Shown piece by piece: positions 2,961-44,223 of a stretch of 64,000 nucleotides of DNA. The stretch covers positions 434,001-498,000 of the forward strand of contig QPGO01000041.1 of the NCBI GenBank assembly GCA_008632985.1, written 5' to 3'. The translations under genes and the position numbers were made by a program. Numbering within the stretch: position 1 is the stretch's first letter; every line of letters starts with the position of its first letter. The stretch is from Psammoneis japonica. Taxonomy: Eukaryota. The notes under the pieces were generated by a model, which saw only the letters and a program-made list of their open reading frames with translations, was not told the DNA's origin and made no database searches.

Positions 2961-3176
2961 GTGACATTGCAGACTGGCTATGAGGTGGCCCGGGGGGGGG
3001 TGCGAAGCGCGCGTCGGACGTCGGAGGGAGTTCTTTATTCTCGGGGCTATAAGGCTTATCTCCAACATCTTCATCTTGCATCTATCGCATTGAAGGCATC
3101 ACACCGTTGCTCCGTTGTTGTATTGCTGATCGACTGACCCTCCATCAACCCCTCTACTACTGCCTGATATCTGAAC

Positions 3177-4334
3177 ATGTCTAAAAGAGAAGATGATCCA
3201 GGATTTGTCCTGTTCTATGAGGGCTGTGATCCACGCCTCAAAGCTCCGTTCTGTGTTGGCTGCAACATGAAAAAGAAGGATGAGATCGTCTTACTTTCAG
3301 CGCGCGAAAACAAGCAACAATCGCTGAAACAGTGCAGTGGCTGCAAACTCGTTTACTATTGTTCGCGTGACTGCCAGGTAGAGGACTGGAAGAACCACAA
3401 ACAGCTCTGCAAGAAGTTTAAGAAACTTCGTGCCAATGTCGCTCATGAAGCCAGCAAGATCCAGACAGCCTTGATGAATCCAGATCTGGTTGGACACTTT
3501 TGGAATCACGAGGTTGGCTTCACGTATCTAAAGGCGAAGTTCGATCTTGCTCTCGAGTTGCATCCGGTTGCCTATAACTTAAATATCCTTCGACACTGGG
3601 AGGAAATAATCCGACACGTTCAACAGGTCTTGAGACTCGGCCATTTAAATATCGGCGATGATCTAGGAGCTAACGTCAAGTTTCCACTCTACTTGATCAA
3701 CTTGGGTCATCTGGACAAGGCCTATTCGGTATGTCGTTACATGATAAGACGACAGTCGGAATCTAGCCAGACTGACTTGGAGATTCAGAAGGGAACTATG
3801 GAAGGAGATTGGATGTATCCATGTGAACCACACTGCCGATTCAACGACATCCAAGAAGATTGTCCCGAAGCCGACTTAACTACGATGCATGAGCACCATC
3901 TGGTGGCTATCTGGCTCATCAAGAGGAAAATCATGTCAATGGCCTACGTTGCGGAAAAAGCATGGTTGTGGTTCTTAGAAACGGACTTTGGCGAGCAGTT
4001 CAATGAGCACATGGATGTCGGCTTTGAGATCATGGGCTTTCTCTACGATAGGGGCTCCTGTCAAACATGGCAGGACTTTCGACGTCAGTTTTGCGCTCAA
4101 GATGCTCAGCTGACCCGCATTTCTGACATCATTGACGGCGTTAATCCTCATATTTTCCCCTTCATGATTGAGTTTTGCCAGGAACAAAACCTGAGACAAC
4201 GAACGTACGATGACGGCGAGGACAAGTTCTTTGCTTGGGCTGCTGTGAATGATTGTAGTTATTCCCTCTTGACTCTACCGGGCCTTCAGGATTGGCTGAT
4301 TCAGTTCATGGGACGGCGAGGTGAGAGACGTTAA
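3177..4334 (+). CDS. MYND-type zinc finger protein (385 aa)
   Basis: CVGC...CSGCKLVYYCSRDCQVEDWKNHKQLC matches the MYND finger. Intact ATG-to-TAA ORF with normal composition. Confidence 0.88.
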   Translation: MSKREDDPGFVLFYEGCDPRLKAPFCVGCNMKKKDEIVLLSARENKQQSLKQCSGCKLVYYCSRDCQVEDWKNHKQLCKKFKKLRANVAHEASKIQTALMNPDLVGHFWNHEVGFTYLKAKFDLALELHPVAYNLNILRHWEEIIRHVQQVLRLGHLNIGDDLGANVKFPLYLINLGHLDKAYSVCRYMIRRQSESSQTDLEIQKGTMEGDWMYPCEPHCRFNDIQEDCPEADLTTMHEHHLVAIWLIKRKIMSMAYVAEKAWLWFLETDFGEQFNEHMDVGFEIMGFLYDRGSCQTWQDFRRQFCAQDAQLTRISDIIDGVNPHIFPFMIEFCQEQNLRQRTYDDGEDKFFAWAAVNDCSYSLLTLPGLQDWLIQFMGRRGERR

Positions 4335-7722: not shown

Positions 7723-8042
7723 GCACGCAACACGAACAGAAAAGTGAAAAAGCGTTGGTCTCCTCGTCGTGGCAACGACATGATTTGTGAGCAGGTTTGC
7801 ATCGCCGTTACTCTGACTTCAGTATCGTCTTATGTAGATGCTACGTAAAAGGACGTCATCGACCGTTACCCACGCGTGATCACGTAGAATCTACATAGAT
7901 TTTCTACTATATTTGGTAACTGTCGGACAACGACTTTTTGTGGAGGGAAATCTATAACTATTTATAGATAACGAATACAAGTATGAAATTATCAAAATCA
8001 TGCAAGGTGCTCGGTGGCGACACTCCGACGACCTCTCCAACC
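7723..8042. promoter_or_regulatory. Probable bidirectional promoter between the 555-aa gene and RRP6
   Basis: The two starts diverge ~320 bp apart. The spacer has AT-rich TATA-like words (ctataactatttatagata ~7952-7970). Confidence 0.45.
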
Positions 8043-10934
8043 ATGAGCGGCCATGACGACAGCGCCGTTCAACAAGACAAGCCGTCGCTTGCCAAACTCC
8101 TGTCTTCGTTGGCTCTGGGTGCTCGCGCTGTTCACGGATTGCCCTTGGAGGACGACTTTCACTTTCAAAATTCCTTTCCCGAGTTTGCCTCGCTCTCACA
8201 AGAATGTCGGCAAGAGCTGCTGCAAACGCTGGCCATTTCCCTCGAAGATCCGTCCCTGGTGGAAGCGTCCACTAGCGATTCACTCGATCCGCACTTGTGG
8301 GAAAGATGTGCGGATGCTTGTGATGCACTGGTGGAAAAGGTAGAAGCCTATCTCGAACGATCCACCAACGCCACCCAACCGATTGAACAATGGTCCGACA
8401 AGGCGCGACAACAGGCACAGCATTCTCATGGACGCGTAGTGGCGTCTCTTGTCGAAATGGAAAAGCCTCAAATCACTCATCACATTAAGGTTCAAAACAA
8501 TCGTCTTGAGCCCTTTGTGCCCAATGTTACCACAAAGCACCACGCGGTTGTGCCGCTTTCGCTCGAGCCTGTTGAGGGACACGGATTGGATACGAGATTT
8601 GGTGATTTGCGGCGCAGCAATGTGGTTGCGTCCGACCTAGTGGCACCATCACACCATGTTCCTCATCCCTATCAGCAAGAGATTGCTTCGCTCGAGTATC
8701 AACCGTGGCAGCTCGAGGCACCGTCCCAAAAGCCTCCGCCCATCAAAGCGGCCGACCATCTAGACGCGTCGTGGGTGGATACGAGAGAAGGACTCGACGA
8801 TTTGCTTGATCAATTAGAGGGCGTTCAGGAAGTTGCGATCGACTTGGAAGCCCACTCTTACCGCAGCTTTTCCGGGATGATCTGCCTCATGCAAATGACT
8901 TTTCAGAAGGACGAAAATTTGTCGACCTACTTGGTGGATACGCTTGCGCTGTGGCACGACATGGAGGCATTGGCACCTCTGTTTGCCGACCCGACGGTTG
9001 TCAAGGTGATGCACGGGGCAGACTGGGATGTGCAGTGGCTGCAACGAGATTTTGGCATTTACATTGTCAATCTGTTTGACACGGGACGTGCTGCGCGAGC
9101 GTTGGGGCTGTCGTCGGCTGGATTGGCGTTTCTGTTGCAAAAATACGTGGGAGTCGAAACGGACAAATCATTCCAGTTATCGGATTGGCGACAACGGCCA
9201 CTGTCAGAAGAAATGACAAAGTATGCCACCATGGATACTCACTACCTGTTGGATATTTACAATCGCCTCAAGTGGGATTTGAATGCTCATCCCGATCCGA
9301 ACGTGAGTATCGAGGCGGTCTTGGATATGAGTCGCAAGATTTGTTTGATTCGCTACGACAAGGAACCCTTCAAGCCCATGGCGTACAAGTTGCTCATGAA
9401 TAGCACTCGCAGCAAAAGTTCCAAGAAACGATCCGAACTAACGAGCAAGCAGGAACGCGTCTTGGCAGCCTTGTTTGATTGGCGTGATCAAACGGCGCGA
9501 GAAGCAGACGAGTCCATTGCGTTCGTCTGCGGCAATCAGGGTCTTTTGCGTTTGGCGCTGTCTTGTCCAACAACGCTGACACTACTCCAAACATGTTTGA
9601 ATCCCATGCCACCCTTAGTCTTGCAGGGCGCCCAAGACATTGTGAATCGCATCAAGGTTGCTATTGCTCAAGACGCTTCCTCGTCCTTTGCGCCGTCGTC
9701 CGCCTTTTTCAAGCCAGCCGAGGCAGAGGACACTGTCGATGACGATGAGCTCCGCCGAGCCACGGGAGTGAGTCCAGTGTTGGGAACCGAAGCACTCTAC
9801 AAGCAAGCCGGATGGATGACACCGCAGCAGCAGCAGCAAGCGGTGTCTCCCACTGGCAGCAACAACAAAGCGTCGACTTTGGAAGTGGTGAATACCACTA
9901 CGACAGACGAGGATGAAGATTTAGATCCCACGACATCCAAGCCACGCAATTTGCTTATGGTACACTCGGACAACAAGGATTATCGTTCCACAAACAATTA
10001 CACCATGCACAGTTTAGGAATGGGGAAAGAAGATCAAAAGGAAGCCAGCGACGGACTGGGTTCTGCACGAGCCGCATTGGAAGTAAGTGACGAAACCGTT
10101 GCGCCACGTCTGCAAGAAGAATCGGAGCGAGCCAAAGAGAGCGCTACGCGGATCCGCATGGACATGGCCAACAAAACACAAGACTTGTTAGGTGTCACTG
10201 CGGCTTTGGAACAAACCACCAGTGCCGAGGAAGAAGAGGAAGACGATGAAGAGATCAATAAGGAACACGACAGCGACGATGATTTTGAAATTCCAAAGAG
10301 TATGAAGGAAATCTACAAAATTAGCAATCGTAACCGACGAAAAAACAAGAAGTCGGCGTCGTCCCGCGAAAGCAACAATGACAATACGGTGGCTCATTCG
10401 CAGCCCAAACCATCTGACACGCTGGAGGGTGCCGAGGCCATCCTGGCAACGGCTGGGTTGGATGGTAAGGGTTACTTTGACGGTGCTGCGGATTCGAAAC
10501 GTCAGCGAACACAAGACGATGCCACCGCCAAGTCCACCAAGTCAAGAAGTGACGATATTCGATTCATGCAACAGATTGGATGGATCAAGGACAAACAAGA
10601 AGCACAAGACTTGCTTTCCACAGAACGCCAACGACACGGCAATGATGGAGAAATTGCTGCTATTGACGTGGCTAAGGATAGTACGGACGATGCGAAATCT
10701 CCAGCCTTTGATTATGCATCTGTGGGAAATATTGGTGTGTTTCATCCGAACGCAGCAGGCACCAATAATAATCCTTTTTTCAGCGGTGCCGCCATGGCAG
10801 GTGGCGGTCCCTTGACGTCACCACAACCGACGCGTTCCCCCAGGAAGAAAAAGGACGGTAAGCCGTCGCGTGGCGTCAAACAAGAACGCCCGGAAAAGAA
10901 GGATGGACGGAGCTTCATCTACAAAAAACGGTAG
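8043..10934 (+). CDS. RRP6: Nuclear exosome 3'-5' exonuclease RRP6/EXOSC10 (PMC2NT-like region, DEDDy exonuclease, HRDC)
   Basis: Motifs VAIDLEAHSYRSFSG, MHGADWDVQWLQRDFGIYIVNLFDTG, LSDWRQRPL and YATMDTHYLL, plus HRDC LFDWRDQTAREADES. Start placed at ATG 8043; the ORF is open from 7983. Confidence 0.95.
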   Translation: MSGHDDSAVQQDKPSLAKLLSSLALGARAVHGLPLEDDFHFQNSFPEFASLSQECRQELLQTLAISLEDPSLVEASTSDSLDPHLWERCADACDALVEKVEAYLERSTNATQPIEQWSDKARQQAQHSHGRVVASLVEMEKPQITHHIKVQNNRLEPFVPNVTTKHHAVVPLSLEPVEGHGLDTRFGDLRRSNVVASDLVAPSHHVPHPYQQEIASLEYQPWQLEAPSQKPPPIKAADHLDASWVDTREGLDDLLDQLEGVQEVAIDLEAHSYRSFSGMICLMQMTFQKDENLSTYLVDTLALWHDMEALAPLFADPTVVKVMHGADWDVQWLQRDFGIYIVNLFDTGRAARALGLSSAGLAFLLQKYVGVETDKSFQLSDWRQRPLSEEMTKYATMDTHYLLDIYNRLKWDLNAHPDPNVSIEAVLDMSRKICLIRYDKEPFKPMAYKLLMNSTRSKSSKKRSELTSKQERVLAALFDWRDQTAREADESIAFVCGNQGLLRLALSCPTTLTLLQTCLNPMPPLVLQGAQDIVNRIKVAIAQDASSSFAPSSAFFKPAEAEDTVDDDELRRATGVSPVLGTEALYKQAGWMTPQQQQQAVSPTGSNNKASTLEVVNTTTTDEDEDLDPTTSKPRNLLMVHSDNKDYRSTNNYTMHSLGMGKEDQKEASDGLGSARAALEVSDETVAPRLQEESERAKESATRIRMDMANKTQDLLGVTAALEQTTSAEEEEEDDEEINKEHDSDDDFEIPKSMKEIYKISNRNRRKNKKSASSRESNNDNTVAHSQPKPSDTLEGAEAILATAGLDGKGYFDGAADSKRQRTQDDATAKSTKSRSDDIRFMQQIGWIKDKQEAQDLLSTERQRHGNDGEIAAIDVAKDSTDDAKSPAFDYASVGNIGVFHPNAAGTNNNPFFSGAAMAGGGPLTSPQPTRSPRKKKDGKPSRGVKQERPEKKDGRSFIYKKR

Positions 10935-32899: not shown

Positions 32900-34310
32900 T
32901 TTGCACCATTTTGACTGAATCAATTGCACAGACAGAGTGCAGTGCAGTGCAGCAGATTCTGCCAGCCTCAACACTTTCCAAGCTAATCTGCTTATTTGCA
33001 ATTGCCATTGCATGCCAAGAATTTAGGTTTTTTGGTTTTGTCTCTGTGTCTTTCTGAGTCTTGGCATTCACAGACTGAACTGTCAATCTTTTGGCTTTCT
33101 TGGACATCACTGACTGCTTGATTGTTGCATTTCCTTGCAGTTTGGACATTGTTTGTTGGTTCATGGCTGCAGTCTTCAATGCATTGAGGCAAAAGACAGA
33201 TGCAACTGGGACACCCAAATTGCTGATGTTCTCAGCTTCTGATTCTGCATTTGTGCCCAAACAAACACAGTGCCAGCATGCTGAACAATTGTTGCACTTG
33301 TGCCATTTGACTGATTCAACTGCACAAACAGAGTGCACTGCAGTGCAGCAGACTCTGTTGGCCTCAACACTTTCCAAGCTGTTCTGTTTCCTTGCAATTG
33401 CTGTTGCATGCCAAGCCTTTGGGTTGTTTGGTTTTGGCTCTGTGTCTTTCTGAGTCTTGGCATTCACAGGTTGAACTGCCAAGCTTTTGTTTTCTTGGAC
33501 ACTGCTGGCTGCATGACTGTTGCACTCCCTTGCTGTTCAGTCATTTGGCTCATGGCTGCGGCTTTCGATGCATTGTGGTGAATGACAGGTGTGACTGTGA
33601 TGCCCACACTGCTGTCATTCTTGGCTTTTGATTCTTTGTTTGCACCCAAATGCTTGGCTTCAGCATTTTCTAAGCTGCTCCACTTCTTTGTGGTTGCAGT
33701 TGCATGCTGAAACTCCACGTCTTTCAGTTTTGGCTCTGTGTCTTTCTGAGTCTTGGCAACCACAGACTGAGCTGCCAAACTTTTGGTTTTCTTGAACATT
33801 GCTGGCTGCTTGACTGTTGCACTCCCTTGCCATTCAGTTGCTTGGTTCATGGCTGCAGCCTTTCATGCATTGTGGCAATCATTGGCACATCACTGCAACA
33901 CCCACATGGCTGTTGTTCTTGGTTTCTGATTCTGCATTCACACCCAAATGAATGGCCTCACCATTTTCTAAGCTGTTTTGCTTCTTTGCAAGAACTGCCA
34001 TTGCATGCTGAGACTTTGGGTTGCTCAGTTTTGGCTCTGTGTCTTTCTGAGTTTTAGCATCCACAGGCTGAACTGCCAAGCTTTCAGTTTTCTTGGACAC
34101 TGCTGACTGCTTGACTGTTGCACTCCCTTGCTGCTCAGTTGTTTGGTTTCTGGCCATGGCTTTTGATGCATTGTGGTGAAAGACAGACATGACTGCAACA
34201 CCCATGCTGCTGTTGTTCTCAGTGTCTGATTCTGCATTCACACTCAAATGAATGGCCTCAACACTTTCCAAGCTGTTCTGCTTCTTTGTGATTGCCGTTG
34301 AATGCTGAAA
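32900..34310 (-). repeat. Degenerate coding tandem repeat, ~4 units of ~300-400 bp
   Basis: Recurrent ctgtgtctttctgagtcttggca and gcctcaacactttccaagct. The peptide AVQ(P/S)V.AKTQKDTEPK is repeated four times. Confidence 0.85.
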
Positions 34311-35480
34311 CTTCAGGTTCCAGAGCAGCCCAGAAGGTGCAGCTAAGACACCAAGCTGTTGCCATCAAAGGCTGAGAAAGCTCCAGAGTTGGTGGGAAAT
34401 GGGCAAGCTGGCTGTGGCTCCACAAAAATTGGATTTGAGGTGTGTCTTGTTGCATCAACTGGTGAGCACCCCAAAGAATTTTTCATCAGCCTTGTGCGGC
34501 ATATGTGCAGACAGCCCTGGCTGCAACTGCTGCTGCAGCAGCAGGAGAAGGGAAAAATGAGTGAGCATGAGGGGCGGTGCAACACAGAGCACTTCTCAGA
34601 GATGCTGTTGCGTGTTGCTTGTGTGCAGCGTTGCCGGCCATGTGCCCGTGGTGGCATGTCTTCAGCCAGAGTTTTTTTTTGTTTTGTCCCCACTCGCACA
34701 AACTTGCACAGTGTGGGGCTTGTTGATGACTGAACCAAGCAGTGCCTGAACATGGCTGGCTAGCCTCTGTTGACAAAGGCAAAAAGGCATCATTCTCAAT
34801 GTGTCATTTGTCAGGCACGCACCACTCGTGGTGTGCAGAACATGGCAATTGTCGAAATCACTGTCACAGTTGTTGTTGTTGGTGATTTTCTTCTCCTGGA
34901 GAAAGCACCATGAAGCCTCAGTGCCAGAAAACAACATCAAACCACTCAGCAGGGGTTTGCTGGGCACAGAATCAGAAAGCTAAATATGCCAGCTTTCAGC
35001 ACAGAAAAATGAGTCTCTCGTGACAAACAAGAAAAGGCAGCTGCAAGGCACTTCAAAAATCAAATAAATTGCCACTCCAGACTTCTAAAACAAAGCATGA
35101 ATTGTGCCAAACAGACGTCAATGCATTGTCGACTGATGCAACGGTTTTTGCTCTGGCGCGCCCGCCCGCGATCCACTTGATGGGTGTTCGCCATAAGCCT
35201 GTGTGTTCGCTGCTGCGGCGTGTTATTCGTTCGACCAATCAGAATTGCCATCTCGTGGATGTCATGGCATGATCTTCGGAATCATCTTGGAGTGTGCGTG
35301 AGAGCGTGAAATCCAAAATCTCGTACCGGTACGCACGGTGCAGTACGTTTCGCGGATCGCGGAGTTTTTCGTTTGACGACTATTCTCTCGCATGCTCTAG
35401 AGAGTATCTGCCACCGTATCCTGCTTCTTGCAGATAGCTTAGGCGCAATTCGACCAGCTCTCTTCGTCCCATCCTTCATC

Positions 35481-38400
35481 ATGGATATTCCAGAACAAGA
35501 GTCGAGAAATGCGACTTTTGCCGACGCAAAAGGGAGTGATGGCGAGGAACCGGAACAGCAAGAAGAACCAACGGAACAAGAGGCACGAAAATTACGTTTT
35601 ACCGAGAAGCAAGGCAACTGTCACTTTGAAACAGAGCAACAAGCTGAACCAATCGAGCAAGATGACCTGGCAGATGTCAACCCTTCTGTCATCACCACCA
35701 GAGGAAACATGAAGCTAGAGTTCGAAGAAGAAAAGGAGAGGGTCATGTCTGGAATACCGGACGATGTGCGTTCCGAGTTTGGCCAAGTCGGATTTGCCAA
35801 GCGGTCCGGAGACTATCTTCCAGTCATGTTTCTGAGTCCATACCAAGTGCCGCCTGGGGCGGTGAGAGACCATTGGATGGCAATGTACGAGAATGTGAGT
35901 GACATGCCATCGCAACGACTGACTGACTCAATCTTTTTCTTTACTGAAAACTCTAAATCCTTGTCCCATTTTATGATTTTTGCGAAACCCCAGACCAAGA
36001 ACCGTAGAGACAGCATGACGAGACTTGTTTATTGGTACGGAGAGCAAAATATGGAGGTGGCATTCTCGTTTATAAGCAAGAGGCATTGTATGTCGTACGA
36101 GGAGGGCGTTCAAAAGGGCAAGCACAAGCTCAAGCGGAGTATCCAGAAAAGGATGGACGCCGGCAAAAAGTTATCAGAAATAGATCAAAATTTGGTGAGA
36201 GGGCTGAAGGAAGTCAATGCTGACGCCATGAAAGACCCCAAGGATAGAAAGCTACCCTTTGGAGATTTTCCCGAGGAACACGAGGTTTTCGAGCTTGGAG
36301 AAGACGAGGAAGTGGACGAAGAACTCACAAGCATTGGTGAGGAACGGGCTGTCCAGAAAGAATTGGACGCCAGAAAAAAGGCATTGAAAACTGATCAGAA
36401 ATCGGTGAGAGGTTTGGAAGAAATCAATGCTGACACCCTCAAGGACCCCAAGGATCGAAATCTGCCCGTTGGAGATTTCCCCGAGGAACACGAGGTTTGC
36501 GAACCTGCAGAGGACAAGGAAGTGCACGAAGAGCCTATGAGCTGTGATGAGGAACCGGCTGTCCAGAAAGAATCGGATGCCGGCAAAAAGTTATCGAAAA
36601 CTGATCAGAACTCGGTGAGAGGGTTGGAAGAAATCAATGCTGACACCCTCAAGGACCCCAAGGATCGAAATCTGCCCGTTGGAGATTTCCCCGAGGAACA
36701 CGAGGTTTGCGAACCTGCAGAGGACAAGGAAGTGCACGAAGAGCCTATGAGCTGTGATGAGGAACCGGCTGTCCAGAAAGAATCGGATGCCGGCAAAAAG
36801 TTATCGAAAACTGATCAGAACTCGGTGAGAGGGTTGGAAGAAATCAATGCTGACACCCTCAAGGACCCCAAGGATCGAAATCTGCCCGTTGGAGATTTTC
36901 CCGAGGAACACGAGGTTCGCGAACCTGCAGAGGACAAGGAAGTGGACGAAGAGCTCACAAACAGCGGTGAGGAACAGGCTGTCCAGAAAGAATCGGGCGC
37001 CAACGAAAAAGATGTCGAAAACTGATCAGAACTCGGTGAGAGGGGTGGAAGAAATCAATGCTGACGCCATCGAAGACACGAAGGATCGAGAGCCACCCTT
37101 TGGAGATTTTCCCGAGGAAGACGAGGGAAGGGAACGTGTGGAAGATGAGGAAGTGGGCGAAGAGCTTATCAGCATTGATGAGGAACCGTTGCCAACGAAG
37201 AAAAAAGCAAAGAACGGATCGAAGGAAGTCGACAAAGAGCTCATGGGTGGGGATGACAAGCTGTCGCAGGAGAATGGAACAGAGGAAGGGCCGAAAAAGC
37301 CACATTGTGGAGAAAATTTGCATGTGGAACAAGAACAGGAGAAGGAACTCTCCGAAGGGGAGGAAGATGCAGTCTTGAGTGAGGACAACGACACAGGCAT
37401 ACAAGCGAGGGCAGAGAACGATGAGTTGATAAGACAATTGGATTCAAAGAAGGTTGCCGATGGAAGCATGGCAGGCCCGGGATGGTTGTGTGTCATGTGC
37501 TCATACCCTGGTGACAACAGTCGTACAGACAAATTGTGGGTTCCACCTTCTCGTTGTGGAAAAGGATTTCGATCCCTAAAGGCAGCCAATGAATTTGCGG
37601 ATTTGATGGAAAAATCTGGTGGCGAGGAAAGCGCATGGAAGACTTTTGCAAAAAGAAAGGGAAAGAACTTGGACTCGTTTGTGCGGAGTCTGCCAGCAAG
37701 TGCATTCACGAGAAATGTCAACAGAAAAAGCAACACCAGCAAGAAGAGGGTTCATGCTGGAGACGGTGATGTGTCGTCATCAAAGAAGAGAAAGACCACA
37801 ACCGGGAATCCGAAGAAGCGCACCAATGCCAGTCAACGTCTTGCCAAAGCTTCTGATCCAACCTCCCGGGATCAAGCTTCCCACGAGATGGCATCACCGA
37901 ATCGGAAAAGTGATGCCCGTTCCCAAGCACCCCAAGTTTCTCGGAAAAAAGCACCGTTGAATTGGAACGGTGACGCACCACCCCGAGCTTCCCTCAAAAA
38001 GGCATCATGGAACCGGAAAGGTGATGCACCTCCCCAGCCACCTGCAGTGAATGACTCAGACCGAGGGAATGCAGAGGACGAATATCATGAAGTTGAAAAA
38101 ATATTGGGGAGGCGCCAAAGGGGTGGCTGTGTCGAGCACTTGGTGCAGTGGAAGGGCTGTTCAGAAAACGAGAACAGTTGGGAGCCCAGATCAAACCTGT
38201 GCGACATGGCCGTTGCGGAGGCCGACAAAGTCTACAAGAAGGACAAGATGAAGAACATGCAGAGAGATTTAGGCCACAGTGTCTTGCTTCATTCCGCTGA
38301 TGAGTCCCCCTTCGCTGAACACATCTTGAATGACCAAGCGCTGATGTTCAATGGAGGATTCCCGGGGAGGATCATCATGGAGAGTCCAAAGAAAGTGGAC

Positions 38401-39986
38401 AAACAAGTTTCCTTTTGGTCTTTGCGCGCCGGAAAGCGAGTGCAGACATTGTCGTACCCTTTGGAGAAAAACATGAGAGTCCATGAACCCAGGAGAGAGT
38501 TCGTCCTGAATGGTGTTACCTACGAGCTAATTTCTTCAAAGATGCACAAGAACAAAGGCAGCAAGAAGGGGGGCCAGTGCAGTGAGAATACGAGCAGAAT
38601 TGATCTGTTGTATTTAGCCACCAAAGATCCAGGATTGGCAGACTGGAATCTCCAAGAGGAGTTGGAAAAAATCGCGGATTTCAGGTCTTTGTCTCCACAG
38701 AAGGCTGCAGCTCGTCTTGAATTGCTTCAGACTCCGGGGGAACATGTGTGGTTTTTAAAAACATCAGATTTTGAATTCATAGAGGAAGACTCTCACCAAG
38801 GATGTGGTTTCATCCCTGAAGACATTTTTGAAATGATGCTTGGTGACAACAAAAAAGCGAAGCGCACTGACTCTCTTCAGATGAGGGGAATTGGCCCTCG
38901 CATTGGTGTTCTTAAAGGGATGCTGGAAAGAAAGCAAGGGACAAGAAAGATTCAGATCCCTTCTAGCCTCCACAAGGTTGGCCCTTCACGGAAACGGAAC
39001 CCAGAGGACTGGGTGGTCCTCATCGCCAAAGGAACGTACCCCTCGTCAAACAATGAATGCTTTGGGAGACTCCTCGATCCCGAGGCCCCAGATCCTCCCA
39101 AGAAAAAACCAGAGTGCCCTGATTTAAGTGACATGCACTCACAAATGCTGGTGGGTCTTGGAGTTCCCAGAAAACAGTCACCAGCTACAAAAAGCGGGCC
39201 AAGCGTGCAAGCACACGCATGCACACTGCTTTGAGGGGAGTTATAGACCCAACAGGCCAGCTGCCAGAGAATTGCATTTTCATACCTGGCTACGTTGAGC
39301 ATTCTACGAGTGATGGAGAAGTGTCCAGGCAGCTGTTTGGTCAGATTCACCAGACTGTGTTTGTGACTAGATCCCCTTGTCTGGAGCCATCTGATGCAAA
39401 ACTTCTGCGTGTGGTCAGCAAGAAGCCAAGGACAATGACCAAAGCTTCATGGAAATTCTTGTGCGACCGTAAATTCGGTCACATTATATTTGCAGCGCCT
39501 GAGACCAAGAACGCAGTGCCGCTGCCATCCCTTGCTGGAGAAGGCGACTTGGATGGAGATGACTGTTTCGTACTTTGGGATGAAAGCGTTCTCGAACACT
39601 TAAAAAAGTGCAAAGTCTTGAGAGATTTGGATGGTGAAGGCACCGACAACAGTCAAGCAAGCGGACCGCCACGTCGCAAGGGATCCAACACGTGGATGAA
39701 GGAATGCCAGGAGCAAATGTTGAACTTGGATCTCCAGAATCGTGTGAGCCAATTAACTGGAAAACTTTACAATCTCTTCGGGGAGATGATTGCCGAGAAT
39801 TCAGAAGACGGGGAAAAGGACGCGCACTCCGTTGCTCGGGCATACAAAGATTCCATGGACATTTTAAAGCACGGTAGAAAAGTGTGTTTGCCCCAGCATC
39901 TTCATAAAAAAATTCCTCCGCATCTGCGAGAATTTTTGGCTGACCCCGGCTGGCAAGCACCGACATGCATTTTCCATCTTTTTTAG
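35481..39986 (+). CDS. Multidomain protein: PWWP-like, acidic repeats, MBD-like, chromodomain and cellular RNA-dependent RNA polymerase; two frameshifts (~37005, ~39175), so possibly pseudogenised
   Basis: RdRP motifs in order: KAAARLELLQT, GCGFI, LQMRG..GVLKGML, IPSSLHK, LRGVIDPTGQL, VFVTRSPCLEPSD, PLPSLAGEGDLDGDDCFVLWD (DLDGD at 39546-39560), SMDILKHG. Chromodomain EYHEVEKILGRR...VEHLVQWKGCSENENSWEP at ~38080-38240. MBD-like GW...TDKLWVPPSRCGKGFRSL at ~37480-37600. PWWP-like FGQVGFAK..YLPV..LVYWYG at ~35780-36110. Confidence 0.85.
35895..35993 (+). other. Probable 99-nt spliceosomal intron (in frame)
   Basis: GTGAGT donor, ctgac branch-like words, T-rich interior and CAG acceptor. Removal joins MYEN to TKNRR. 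Confidence 0.75.
36150..37190 (+). repeat. Five ~210-bp (70-aa) intragenic tandem repeats
   Basis: DQNSVRGLEEINADTLKDPKDRNLPVGDFPEEHEV... recurs at ~36183, 36393, 36603, 36813 and 37024. The middle copies are nearly identical. Confidence 0.95.
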
Positions 39987-40249: not shown

Positions 40250-40660
40250 GCAAAGAGTCTTGAGAGTAAATGGTGAAGGCAACAACAACAGTGAAGCAAA
40301 CGGACCACCACATTGCAAGGGACCCAACACGTGGGTGTAAGAATGCCAGGAGATTTTCACCATCCTCATTTAACTGTTTTGTGATCACGCCAAAGATGGG
40401 CATTAGAAGGCATCTACCAAATGGGCCGCCACTTCGCAAGGGATCCAGCAGGTGGATGAAGAGAAATGCAGGAGCAAAAAATGAAGAAATTCTATCTCCA
40501 GTGTCGTGTCATCCATCCAGCTGGAAAACTTAATGGCCTCTTCTAGAAGTTTACCGAAAATTCAAATATGGGATATTTAAAAAGGACGGGCACTCCGTTG
40601 CTCGGGCGTGAAAAGATTTCATAGACATTTTAAAGCACTGCATAGAAGTGTTTTGCCCCA
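40250..40660 (+). pseudogene. Two degenerate partial copies of the RdRP 3' coding end
   Basis: 40250-40352 aligns by eye to 39610-39713 (atggtgaaggca..acaacagt.aagcaa.cggacc.ccac...gaatgccaggag). 40422-40660 aligns to 39662-39895 (aaaaggacg.gcactccgttgctcgggc, gacattttaaagcac). Confidence 0.85.
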
Positions 40661-41043
40661 CAAATCTACGGCAGCTACCCACCAGAAACCCCCACGTGTG
40701 TTTCTACGCCCGCTCTCGCACTGATGTCGTCCTTTTCAGAAGGCGTGTCGGGGGATTGGCCACTTCTGTCATTGGTGCACCCTTATTTTAGCATGATGTA
40801 CAATGATTTTCAGTGGAAAACGATTGGCGTCGACGCCTTGTGGTTCGTGTGCTTGTTGTCTCATTCGGCATGTTTTGTAGATTCGGTGCATTTTCTACAC
40901 ATGATCTAGTTCAAATTCTACGTGCTTCAGAAACACCCACCGACGATCATAGCGTCTTCGATGCGATCATCTTCCATCCACACCTATCATCAGCAAACAA
41001 CAATTTTTTTCTCCTGCCGGCTGTTCAAGTCCTTCTCCTGATT

Positions 41044-41400
41044 TGGTGCAAGTTCTGTCCCTGCTGTGGCGTTTGCGAGTGTTCATTTGGATAAACCATC
41101 GGCATCACTTGACGACCGTCCATTTGCTGCGCAAAATCAGCATTTCTACGCAAGATTTGGCATCAATTCTACATGAGAATAATGTTTCTTCCGACGTCCT
41201 TCTCTGCCACCACCCTCCCCTCTCCTGCCCTCAATCCTCCTGATGGTGCAAGTTCTGTCCTGCTGGCGTTGCGAGTGTTCATTTGGATAAACCATCGGCA
41301 TCACTTGACGACCGTCCATTTGCTGCGCAAAATCAGCATTTCTACGCAAGATTTGGCATCAATTCTACATGAGAATAATGTTTCTTCCGACGTCCTTCTC
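41044..41400. repeat. Near-identical direct repeat of ~160 bp, period ~197 bp
   Basis: tggtgcaagttctgtcc...ttccgacgtccttctct occurs at ~41044 and ~41224. Confidence 0.9.
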
Positions 41401-42591
41401 TGGCCTACCAACCCTGCCACCGGCACTCCGAGTAGTGAATGGTTTAATTTTGTTCCGGTGCGTGAAAATGTGAAACTCAGTCAGTCTTTGTTGAAGACAA
41501 GACACATCCTTGGAAGCAAGGTTTTTCTTTCAGAGTTTGCGCAATAATCTCATTTCTGTGCAATTTTATCTCAACCAGCTGTCTCCGTCTGGCGCCTCTA
41601 TCCGGAAGCGCCGCAACCGGCTGATCACATGAACTGCTGCCGCACCCGAATTGTGGGTTAGCCGGCGCCGGTGTTGCTGGGCAAAGGTGTAACAGCACTA
41701 AAAATTAGGTTTGAGTTTTGTTTTGTTTTTGCCCCAGCATCTTTATGAAACATGCCTCCACATCAGCAAGAGCTGTGCCAGATTCCATTATCGCGCGCCC
41801 AATATGGCAAATTACGCGCTAAAAACCCGATCCATTATTCGCACGACTGCACTGCACTAATTAACTTCACTGCGGGGGGTCCCTCTCTCAACTCTTGTTT
41901 TTGTACTTTCGTTATGTGTCAAGGTTACATAATACTCCAAAAGTTTTTGGACGTCCCACTGCGTTTTGGAGAAAGATCGACGATTGATCGTGGTGCCTGA
42001 TGTTCTCGTTTTCGTGCGCGATCGGGTGTTAACATGTATAGTTTTTGTATAAAAAAATAAACACTGTAAAAAGCCTTATTCAAATGCCACGGTATTGTGT
42101 TGGTGATCCAGCCATTGAGGACAAACCCGGGGATGACGCCCCTTAATGCTTACAAATTTTGTGTTGGTGATCAAGCCAAAGATGGACACTTTGATGAAAA
42201 CGGCTTTTGTACATGCAACTAAAGATTGCTTCTTCGAATTTTATCGTCTACGTGTTTTGTTGCGTGTCTATTCATAGTTTTGTGATCAACAGTAATGTGC
42301 GAAGGACAATGAGATAAAACTTTGCCGAGTTTATTGCTTTCTTATCTTCAGAGCTTGGTTTAATAACAGCAACAGAAATGAAATCAAAACGTGATTGCTA
42401 ATCCACTGGCTGGCACCCATCAAAAAGGGGGCCACTTTCAAACCTCCAAGCAATGAAACAAAAGTAGAAAGATAAAGAAAACACATTTTACACCCACAAA
42501 AACCACACCGGATTCTTTGTAGAAATGCAAAGCACACAGATTGGCACGAGTACAAGTATCTCGGAGATTTGAGCTAACATTCGTTTGTGGT

Positions 42592-43127: not shown

Positions 43128-44223
43128 GTAAGGGCTTAGATGAGCGCGTGTAAATATGAAGTTGTCAGTCCCGCCTACTCGTGACTCAGTACTTTCCTAC
43201 GGTGAAAATTGCGTAGAAATCCGAAGATGACAAAAACGGTCCGATAACTTCCGCTAACAATAATATCAACTGCATGTAATGTACATTCAATGTTCTTTAA
43301 TATGTGAATGAACCACTTTAANNNNNNNNNNNNNNNNNNNNNNNNNNNNNNNNNNNNNNNNNNNNNNNNNNNNNNNCAGTTGATATTATTGTTAGCGGAA
43401 GTTATCGGACCGTTTTTGTCATCTTCGGATCTCTACGCAATTTTCACCGTAGGAAAGTACTGAGTCACGAGTATGCGGGACTGACCACTTCCTGTATCCG
43501 CGCGCGCATCTCAGCCCTTAAAAGCAACCAACATTTTTGAAGCGAAATATCTCTCGTAGACTTACAATGAGAAACTATTACGAGATGGACGCCTTTAGCC
43601 AAAGATGGATAAGTCTATTCCTTTCTTTACCAAGTAACTATTCTTTTCCTTACCAAGTAAGACTGACTGGCGTTAGATGGACAATACTTTTTTTAGAACA
43701 ATTTGTGCTTCTTGTTGCGTGTTGAGAAAAAAAACATTTGTGATGCAGTTACGATTCGTCTTTCGTTCGGAGCACCTTCCAATTCGTCAAAGTAACTGCA
43801 TCTAACGCTTAAAGAGGTTCATTCACATATTAAAGAACATTGAATGTACATTACATGCAGTTGATATTATTGTTAGCGGAAGTTATCGGACCGTTTTTGT
43901 CATCTTCGGATCTCTACGCAATTTTCACCGTAGGAAAGTACTGAGTCACGAGTATGCGGGACTGACCACTTCCTGTATCCGCGCGCGCATCTCAGCCCTT
44001 AAAAGCAACCAACATTTTTGAAGCGAAATATCTCTCGTAGACTTACAATGAGAAACTATTACGAGATGGACGCCTTTAGCCAAAGATGGATAAGTCTATT
44101 CCTTTCTTTACCAAGTAACTATTCTTTTCCTTACCAAGTAAGACTGACTGGCGTTAGATGGACTACACTTTTTTTAGAACAATTTGTGCTTCTTGTTGCG
44201 TGTTGAGAAAAAAAACATTTGTG
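43128..44223. repeat. ~190-bp inverted repeat centred on the N gap, plus a 481-bp-period tandem duplication of the right arm
   Basis: 43128-43321 is the reverse complement of 43377-43520 and of 43809-44001. 43377-43742 recurs at 43858-44223. The arms end in TTAA. Confidence 0.9.
43322..43376. other. Assembly gap (N run)
   Basis: Run of n bases. Confidence 1.

Follow-up and report, generated by a model that had tools for sequence, protein, structure and literature searches.

Does a gene of the diatom Psammoneis japonica join an RNA-dependent RNA polymerase (RdRP) to chromatin-reading modules in a single chain, and is that gene still in working order? How small-RNA production stays restricted to silent chromatin is a key problem for heterochromatin directed by RNA interference (RNAi), and in model systems multi-protein complexes link the reader and the RdRP. 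The gene in question occupies 35481-39986 of a 64,000-nt stretch of contig QPGO01000041.1 (positions 434,001 to 498,000, forward strand), and this whole stretch is referred to here as the window. A preliminary description of the window had proposed that, once an intron is removed and two single-base frameshifts are corrected, the gene encodes a single-polypeptide silencing enzyme in which a PWWP-like domain, acidic repeats, a methyl-CpG-binding domain (MBD)-like motif and a chromodomain precede the RdRP. The physical link between reader and polymerase is real: the chromodomain and the N-terminal half of the RdRP core lie in one uninterrupted frame of the window, and the whole arrangement is intact in a related protein, P0004. 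The proposal of a single-polypeptide enzyme therefore holds for the fusion of a chromodomain, and at the profile level of an MBD-like module, to an RdRP. It does not hold for the window itself, which is not one open polypeptide; the second frameshift severs the catalytic half. The window copy is probably a recently disabled gene, either a null allele or a young pseudogene that is transcribed.

The gene consists of three long open reading frames (ORFs) in series on the + strand, on which all features of the gene described below also lie. ORF1 spans 35310-37025 (frame 0), ORF2 spans 36829-39234 (frame 1), and ORF3 spans 39132-39986 (frame 0). Their open lengths are 571, 801, and 284 codons, respectively, and apart from the two shifts there is no stop inside any of them. 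The first ATG of ORF1 is at 35481, from which ORF1 is open for 514 codons, and its frame-0 stop codon is 37023-37025.

The first shift is visible in the acidic repeats. Five tandem 210-nt copies, each encoding a 70-aa acidic unit as the preliminary description had stated, cover 36142-37188 (Tandem Repeats Finder, 5.0 copies, 87% matches). The spacing of the copies is 210, 210, 210, and 211 nt, which places one extra base relative to the repeat consensus at 37001-37006 (about 37003). Copies 1-4 are in frame 0; copy 5 is in frame 1 and in this shifted frame still specifies the repeat peptide. Copy 5 reads GCCAACGAAAAAG, and the consensus at that place is GCCAGCAAAAAG. The extra base ends the first frame at 37025. 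Six bases past the shift there is a frame-1 ATG (37012-37014) with an A at position -3, a possible separate start of the reader-RdRP ORF.

The second shift is visible in comparison with related polymerases. In a tblastn alignment (E 1.5e-127), residues 297-605 of the relative P0003 fall on 38260-39168 (frame 1) and residues 606-870 on 39168-39938 (frame 3 of the tblastn numbering). The alignment changes frame at 39168 without a gap in the query, so that the core is not encoded in one continuous reading frame. At this point the relatives carry the pattern GVP-xx-V..Y, which the window splits over two frames, GVPRK and TVTSYKK, with base 39174 common to both. The A4 run at 39171-39174 is therefore one base short, and the polymerase core is cut into a non-catalytic N-terminal half and a catalytic C-terminal half. 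In the window copy, the catalytic half is unreachable from the upstream frames.

Are the two shifts errors of the assembly? Contigs built from the reads of two sequencing runs, X1 and X2, extend over both sites (X1/X2: 36915/36888-37044 and 37015-40100/39900) with 0 gaps, and no indel is listed at either shift. These contigs are not simply the consensus of the window, because three sites differ: 37676 (S to L), 37776 (silent), and 39565 (C to Y). At 39565, the window has a G (Cys in GDLDGDDC) and the contigs of both runs have an A (the family-conserved Tyr), which may reflect a second haplotype or a consensus difference. Both shifts thus exist, at least in the dominant sequence. Since they are present in the contigs of both runs, correcting them, as the preliminary description did, is a hypothesis about the gene and not the repair of an error, although a single-base shift is found at each of the two sites. 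Both runs derive from a single sample and are possibly the reads behind the window assembly. X2 carries the run label 'DNA?'. We took it as cDNA because it contains spliced joints, because a paralogue is present in it without the intron, and because its contigs amount to 30 Mb, the longest being 16 kb. Introns bridging the shifts were considered and rejected. The donor/acceptor pairs near 36967-37041 would remove 20, 45, or 63 nt, none of which is 3n+1, and the sole GT..AG pair near 39150 is 20 nt apart; at both places the contigs are colinear with the DNA.

The RdRP core surrounding the second shift is otherwise well preserved. The C-terminal half (39174-39986, frame 0, stop TAG 39984-39986) matches the Pfam RdRP family PF05183 with 74.1 bits (cut-off 23.8; E 1.3e-20), and the match is direct only at profile positions 339-554 of 582. 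The catalytic DxDGD loop is present as GDLDGD at 39543-39560. The N-terminal half (38260-39174, frame 1) is encoded in ORF2, and four homologues (P0003-P0006) align across both frames in tblastn (E down to 1.5e-127). The compact RdRP core with GDLDGD of the preliminary description is thus seen, at a length by homology of ~560-575 aa instead of ~470 aa. Among the columns with at least 85% conservation in 100 relatives, the window keeps 68 of 73, which places it 32nd from the lowest among 100 (median 0.95). The five changed columns are S/T, V/M, L/I, M/L, and Y/C. Because the frames are otherwise free of stops and 68 of the 73 conserved columns are kept, the damage looks very young, or it is absent from some copies. 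A tblastn search of the window with relatives found no further RdRP-like sequence. Just downstream of the gene, at 40270-40713, there are degenerate partial duplicates of its last ~260 nt (pieces 82-87% identical), which give a weak tblastn match to residues 777-871 of P0003.

The reader that is most clearly identified is the chromodomain, and here the preliminary description was right. It lies in ORF2 at 38080-38230 and is recognized by Pfam PF00385 with 40.1 bits (cut-off 25.1; E 3.5e-10). The best matches among solved structures are CBX5/HP1 (E 1.9e-13) and Drosophila HP1 (E 2.1e-11), which makes it an HP1-type chromodomain. The likeness does not extend to the methyl-lysine cage. We take the HP1 cage to be Y24, W45, and Y48, and the mapping onto the window relies on this numbering. 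The window residues at these positions are H, W, and C, so that a cage of three aromatic residues is not formed. In most RdRP-linked relatives the first two positions are W and the third is C, S, or H; P0076 has a Y in the first. The RdRP-linked chromodomains thus seem to form a subfamily of their own, one that does not allow its ligand to be deduced. Because the cage is non-canonical, methyl-lysine binding is not implied. A word-index search with ORF2 matched only chromodomain proteins, one of them the Tf2 retrotransposon (E 6.8e-4). A retroelement origin of the chromodomain was considered and is unsupported, the best matches being HP1/CBX.

Upstream of the chromodomain, a second module at 37462-37680 starts with GPGW...FRS and continues with two helices. 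The window segment 37441-37740 alone gives no Pfam family at E ≤ 1, and the MBD-like motif reported by the preliminary description emerges only at the level of the family. Alignment A1 shows the module again in P0003, P0004, P0006 (with several copies), P0011, and P0015, and the copy in P0003 passes Pfam MBD PF01429 (26.3 bits, cut-off 21). Further evidence comes from a search of the PDB with the six-sequence profile A1. Of 36 rows at E ≤ 10, the best 27 were MBD-type (best E 2.5e-4) and included MBD2, MBD4, plant MBD6, MBD1, MeCP2, the MeCP2 homologue ARBP, and MBD3. An AlphaFold model of the module, with a mean confidence score (pLDDT) of 75.2, shows a hairpin followed by two helices. In a Foldseek search with this model, the first 21 rows listed were MBD domains or MBD2 complexes, all of them weak (E 0.4-2.4, template-modelling score 0.31-0.47). 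The module shares with MBD2, MBD4, MeCP2, and plant MBD5/6 the pattern PxGW ... SP ... FRS, and its predicted hairpin-plus-helix fold ranks MBDs first, at these weak scores. It differs from them in an extra conserved C-terminal helix pair of AWEEY type. It also differs in the residues that contact methyl-CpG, which we take to be, in MeCP2/MBD2, two Arg fingers, an Asp, and a Tyr. Against this list, the alignment offers a counterpart for the Arg of FRS and for an Asp. Neither the first Arg finger nor the Tyr stands out, and only one contact residue is clearly kept. The sequence evidence supports the name MBD-like, and methyl-CpG binding is not implied. The suggestion of the preliminary description that the reader modules bind methylated histones or DNA does not follow from either module.

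Both modules are set in charged linkers. An acidic linker (37189-37461, 27% D+E) follows the repeats, and the N-terminus of P0004 is comparably acidic. A basic, Ser/Thr-rich linker with KKRK-type motifs (37681-38079, 22% K+R) separates the MBD-like module from the chromodomain.

Is the fusion a peculiarity of this locus? An exhaustive HMMER search with 37441-39174 returned 1677 representatives at E ≤ 1e-3, of which 355 reach E ≤ 1e-10 and 34 reach E ≤ 1e-30. Pfam was then applied to 152 proteins, namely P0003-P0006 and 148 further matches listed. Eight of these had a chromodomain only, which leaves 144 RdRP relatives. The most informative is P0004 (958 aa), which is intact and carries an acidic region, the MBD-like module, a chromodomain (E 9.5e-15), and the RdRP in this order, and whose cluster contains a transcript from MMETSP. 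Pfam finds a chromodomain in five of the 144: P0004, P0014, P0032 (four copies), and the fragments P0076 and P0110; in P0026 it was found by phmmer only. The MBD-like motif also occurs in five. Other N-terminal modules are present as well: HA in three relatives, PHD in two, CXXC in one (all by Pfam), and a Tudor domain of PTM/DIR17 type in front of the RdRP in two, P0128 and P0153. Where the sources of the relatives carry names, these point to diatoms (Nitzschia, Discostella, Thalassiosira exigua, Proboscia alata, and MMETSP transcripts). Intact homologues with the same domain order thus exist for the MBD-like module, chromodomain, and RdRP, in the form of P0004. The library searches found no homologue with the full order of PWWP-like region, repeats, MBD-like module, chromodomain, and RdRP.

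The window groups closely with some of these relatives. A maximum-likelihood tree was built from 101 core sequences under LG+G4, as a quick build with SH-aLRT as the only branch support; rows lacking one half, cores shorter than 380 aa, and six same-cluster duplicates were left out. The window falls in a clade of 11 (SH-aLRT 99) together with P0003, P0004, P0005, P0006, P0009, P0010, P0011, P0012, P0123, and P0160. Within this clade, P0003, P0004, P0006, and P0011 carry the MBD-like module, and P0009 and P0010 carry HA. The distribution of the chromodomain on the tree needs at least three gains or losses.

Three observations on the wider family may be added. KOW/SPT5-like domains stand before the RdRP in 19 of the 144 relatives (P0017, P0022, P0023, P0030, P0038-P0041, P0046, P0052, P0060, P0080, P0100, P0105, P0108, P0113, P0130, P0131, and P0133). 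The carriers cluster on the tree, with five changes against a mean of 10.1 after shuffling. P0136 (909 aa) is the sole relative, one of 144, in which the RdRP is followed by a C-terminal RNase H1-type module (Cauli_VI E 3.9e-20, with RVT_3 and RNase_H). P0153 shows a sub-threshold Pfam PWWP match (E 0.008; 17.1 bits against 25.6).

The N-terminal part of the window gene has a different history. A probable 5' leader (35366-35480) begins where the X2 contig bearing the spliced form begins, so that 35366 is a contig end and no mapped transcript start, and it contains a 2-codon upstream ORF with its ATG at 35392. Exon 1 (35481-35894) comprises the start codon, an acidic N-terminus, and, from ~35748, the first half of the PWWP-like region, with homology to the proteins P0007 and P0008. 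It is followed by an intron of 99 nt (35895-35993, GT..AG) that keeps the frame. The X1 contig is continuous through this intron, and an X2 contig joins 35894 exactly to 35994. The intron, which the preliminary description had also placed in the gene, is real because X2 contains the joint that its removal creates. Past the intron, at 35994-36143, the PWWP-like region continues with its second half, 41% identical to P0007 in alignment A2.

The name PWWP was not borne out. Pfam PWWP (PF00855) matched neither ORF1, nor either exon piece, nor P0007, and a PDB profile search gave no PWWP match with the read-through alignment A2 or with each exon piece alone. The tests with ORF1, P0007, and the A2 profile lose some sensitivity because the read-through includes 33 residues coded by the intron; the exon pieces are free of intron residues and are only 42-50 aa long. 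The sole PDB match of the read-through profile under E 0.01, a DnaB loader, aligns through the intron-coded part and was judged spurious. An AlphaFold model made from a two-sequence alignment has a pLDDT of 45 and is unusable. The nearest ESM Atlas clusters of both the window region and P0007 are all PWWP (0.80-0.83), which by the statistics of the tool is a lead only.

Where does this region come from? A search with 35481-36143 found only two proteins, P0007 (920 aa) and P0008 (478 aa, with an HA domain). P0007 is homologous to 35630-36350 of the window (E 5.4e-28). Like the window gene, this unnamed ENA protein, a diatom PWWP-like protein, has an intron at the same position and carries the 70-aa unit. 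It differs from the window gene in that it has no RdRP, and indeed no Pfam match, and one copy of the unit instead of five. When the spliced PWWP-like region was compared by phmmer with 167 collected proteins, 153 of them RdRP relatives by a local phmmer comparison, it matched only P0007 and P0008, neither of which is an RdRP. In addition, both X1 and X2 contain a paralogous contig that is ~88% identical over 35630-36040 (47 differing letters), and a further divergent contig reaches 36135. The N-terminal part thus looks like a recent duplicate of another gene, because a paralogous contig of ~88% identity exists and none of the RdRP relatives compared carries the PWWP-like part. The simplest reading of these comparisons is that a duplicated 5' piece of a P0007-type gene was set before the RdRP gene, after which the 70-aa unit would have been amplified. 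Codon positions are of little help here. The five repeats show no third-position excess, which says nothing on selection, and the 26 exon-1 paralogue differences listed, a part of all, fall on 10 first, 6 second, and 10 third positions and are not informative. P0008 has the second half of the PWWP-like region first, the HA domain between, and the first half last, and it is probably a gene call running across two neighbouring copies.

These observations can be brought together in a model for the state of the locus. The ancestral form would have been the one that is intact in P0004, with an acidic region, an MBD-like module, an HP1-type chromodomain, and an RdRP. In the lineage of the window, the 5' piece of another gene, with the PWWP-like region and one 70-aa unit, would have been joined in front, and the unit would then have grown to five copies. 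An extra base at ~37003 would later have ended the first frame, and a base lost from 39171-39174 would have separated the catalytic half from the rest. The rest of the coding sequence is clean, and the breaks would therefore be very recent. Several points weigh against the view that the gene is disabled. The contigs show the presence of the shifts and not the absence of an intact form, so that the genome may contain another allele, or a paralogue at some other place, that is intact, and the contigs share one sample and perhaps the very reads behind the window. The well-preserved conserved residues would fit an intact gene equally well. The ATG at 37012, just behind the first shift, could give the reader-RdRP ORF a start of its own without any decay. 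That X2 represents RNA is inferred for a run labelled 'DNA?'. For the relatives, the mechanism proposed below is read from domain identity only, with an incomplete chromodomain cage and few of the MBD contact residues.

Some of these points lead to a different reading, which we consider unlikely. According to it, and as the preliminary description had it, the gene is intact in the organism and encodes one protein of ~1,470 aa (PWWP-like region, repeats, MBD-like module, chromodomain, and RdRP), and the shifts occur in one allele or strain or in the consensus only. The otherwise stop-free frames and the 68 of 73 conserved columns would be expected, and the fifth repeat still encodes its peptide through a shifted frame. 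Both lesions also lie in or beside A-runs, and the three differences between window and contigs, including reads with the consensus Tyr at 39565, point to more than one haplotype. However, in either run both sites are covered by contigs with 0 gaps and no listed indel, the PWWP-like module stands on none of the RdRP relatives compared, and a homologue with the full order was not found in the library searches.

A further reading, to which we give somewhat less weight again, is that the locus makes separate products. One would be a spliced PWWP-like/repeat protein (35481-37025), and the other a reader-only protein that starts at ATG 37012, comprises the MBD-like module, the chromodomain, and the non-catalytic N-terminal half of the RdRP core, ends at 39234, and possibly acts as a decoy or adaptor in place of a polymerase. 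The A at -3 of this ATG, 6 nt past the frameshift, is in keeping with such a start, as is the acidic beginning of the resulting ORF, which resembles the N-terminus of P0004, and ORF1 itself stays open for its 514 codons. The difficulty is that in eukaryotes an ORF downstream of one of ~480 codons is rarely translated, and no internal transcript start is shown. Moreover, an RdRP core truncated to one half would probably not fold, and, obvious fragments aside, no relative ends at that point of the core. A bypass of both shifts by programmed +1 and -1 ribosomal frameshifting or by transcript slippage would fit their opposite signs and A-rich sites, and is nevertheless very improbable: neither site has a canonical slippery heptamer, transcriptional slippage as known needs longer A-runs than the 4-5 present, the intact relatives need no shift, and the X2 contig is colinear with the DNA. 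A recently disabled gene is thus the reading that we carry forward for the window copy.

What would the intact members of the family do? Judging from domain identity, the reader modules would hold the polymerase on marked or silent chromatin, and the N-terminal modules of the KOW types would place it on elongating polymerase. An SPT5-like factor acts in plant RNA-directed DNA methylation, and a KOW/SPT5-like fusion would tie the RdRP to elongating polymerase in a single protein. A tethered RdRP would copy nascent transcripts into double-stranded RNA (dsRNA) for Dicer. In this way, one polypeptide would do work that in fission yeast and plants takes reader complexes together with RdRP complexes. 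A broader proposal, plausible and still doubtful, is that diatom RdRPs of one compact family are hard-wired to chromatin or transcription by fusion to MBD-like modules, HP1-type chromodomains, PHD/CXXC, Tudor, or SPT5-like KOW domains. Single chains would then read a mark or the elongating polymerase and make dsRNA on the spot, and the window would hold a very young broken member with a captured PWWP-like module. Because the window's own copy is probably dead, the value of the locus lies in the family, with its intact members such as P0004. A family of one-chain reader-polymerases would offer a minimal, directly testable form of reader-RdRP coupling, and it is found in diatoms, which are ecologically major and whose RNAi machinery is poorly understood. 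The locus itself would show how fast reader-RdRP fusions arise and get lost.

The surroundings of the gene contain a few further features. Upstream, at 33003-34318, there is a tandem array with a period of ~300 nt and copies 65-87% identical, and the - strand ORFs of this array have no Pfam match. A perfect direct repeat of 134 nt lies downstream (41073-41206 and 41269-41402, starts 196 nt apart). At 7968-10934 (+), the window encodes an RRP6-like nuclear exosome exonuclease (PMC2NT, 3'-5' exonuclease E 3.4e-47, HRDC), and at 3168-4334 (+) a zf-MYND protein. A run of 55 N at 43322-43376 marks an assembly gap.

The reader-fused RdRP family of diatoms is apparently undescribed. The preliminary description knew of no account of this architecture, and in full-text literature, subscription journals and database architecture tables aside, no paper on a chromo-, MBD-, PHD-, or Tudor-RdRP fusion was found. 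The precomputed Pfam strings of the protein collection do already display the reader-RdRP architecture to automatic annotation. In the portions of the papers available, diatom RdRP genes are only listed (De Riso 2009, PMC2724275; Maumus 2011, PMC3145265), and the accessible part of another paper (PMC8885841) is unrelated to reader-RdRP fusions. The nearest precedent comes from the relevant section of Bollmann 2016 (PMC4791657), which describes an RdRP with an N-terminal DEAD-box helicase in Phytophthora and Dictyostelium. That RdRP likewise shows that a cellular RdRP of protists and stramenopiles can bear an extra domain; unlike the diatom modules, the domain described there is a Dicer-like helicase and no chromatin reader.

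How does the diatom family compare with the better-known RdRPs? With QDE-1, Rdp1, and the RDR proteins (PF05183), the window gene shares the profile match of 74.1 bits, the GDLDGD loop, and the conserved columns of the core. It differs from them in that its core is compact and split by a 1-nt frameshift, and in that its family bears N-terminal modules related to chromatin or transcription. The closest functional parallels are the silencing systems in which reader and RdRP are separate proteins held in complexes, namely RITS (with the chromodomain protein Chp1) and RDRC (with Rdp1) in S. pombe, and SHH1-Pol IV-RDR2 in plants. There, the protein that recognizes silent chromatin is linked to an RdRP, and dsRNA is made at the marked locus; the P0004-type relatives may, by analogy, couple the two as well. 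The difference is that in the P0004-type proteins, known here from sequence, the reader and the polymerase are parts of one chain.

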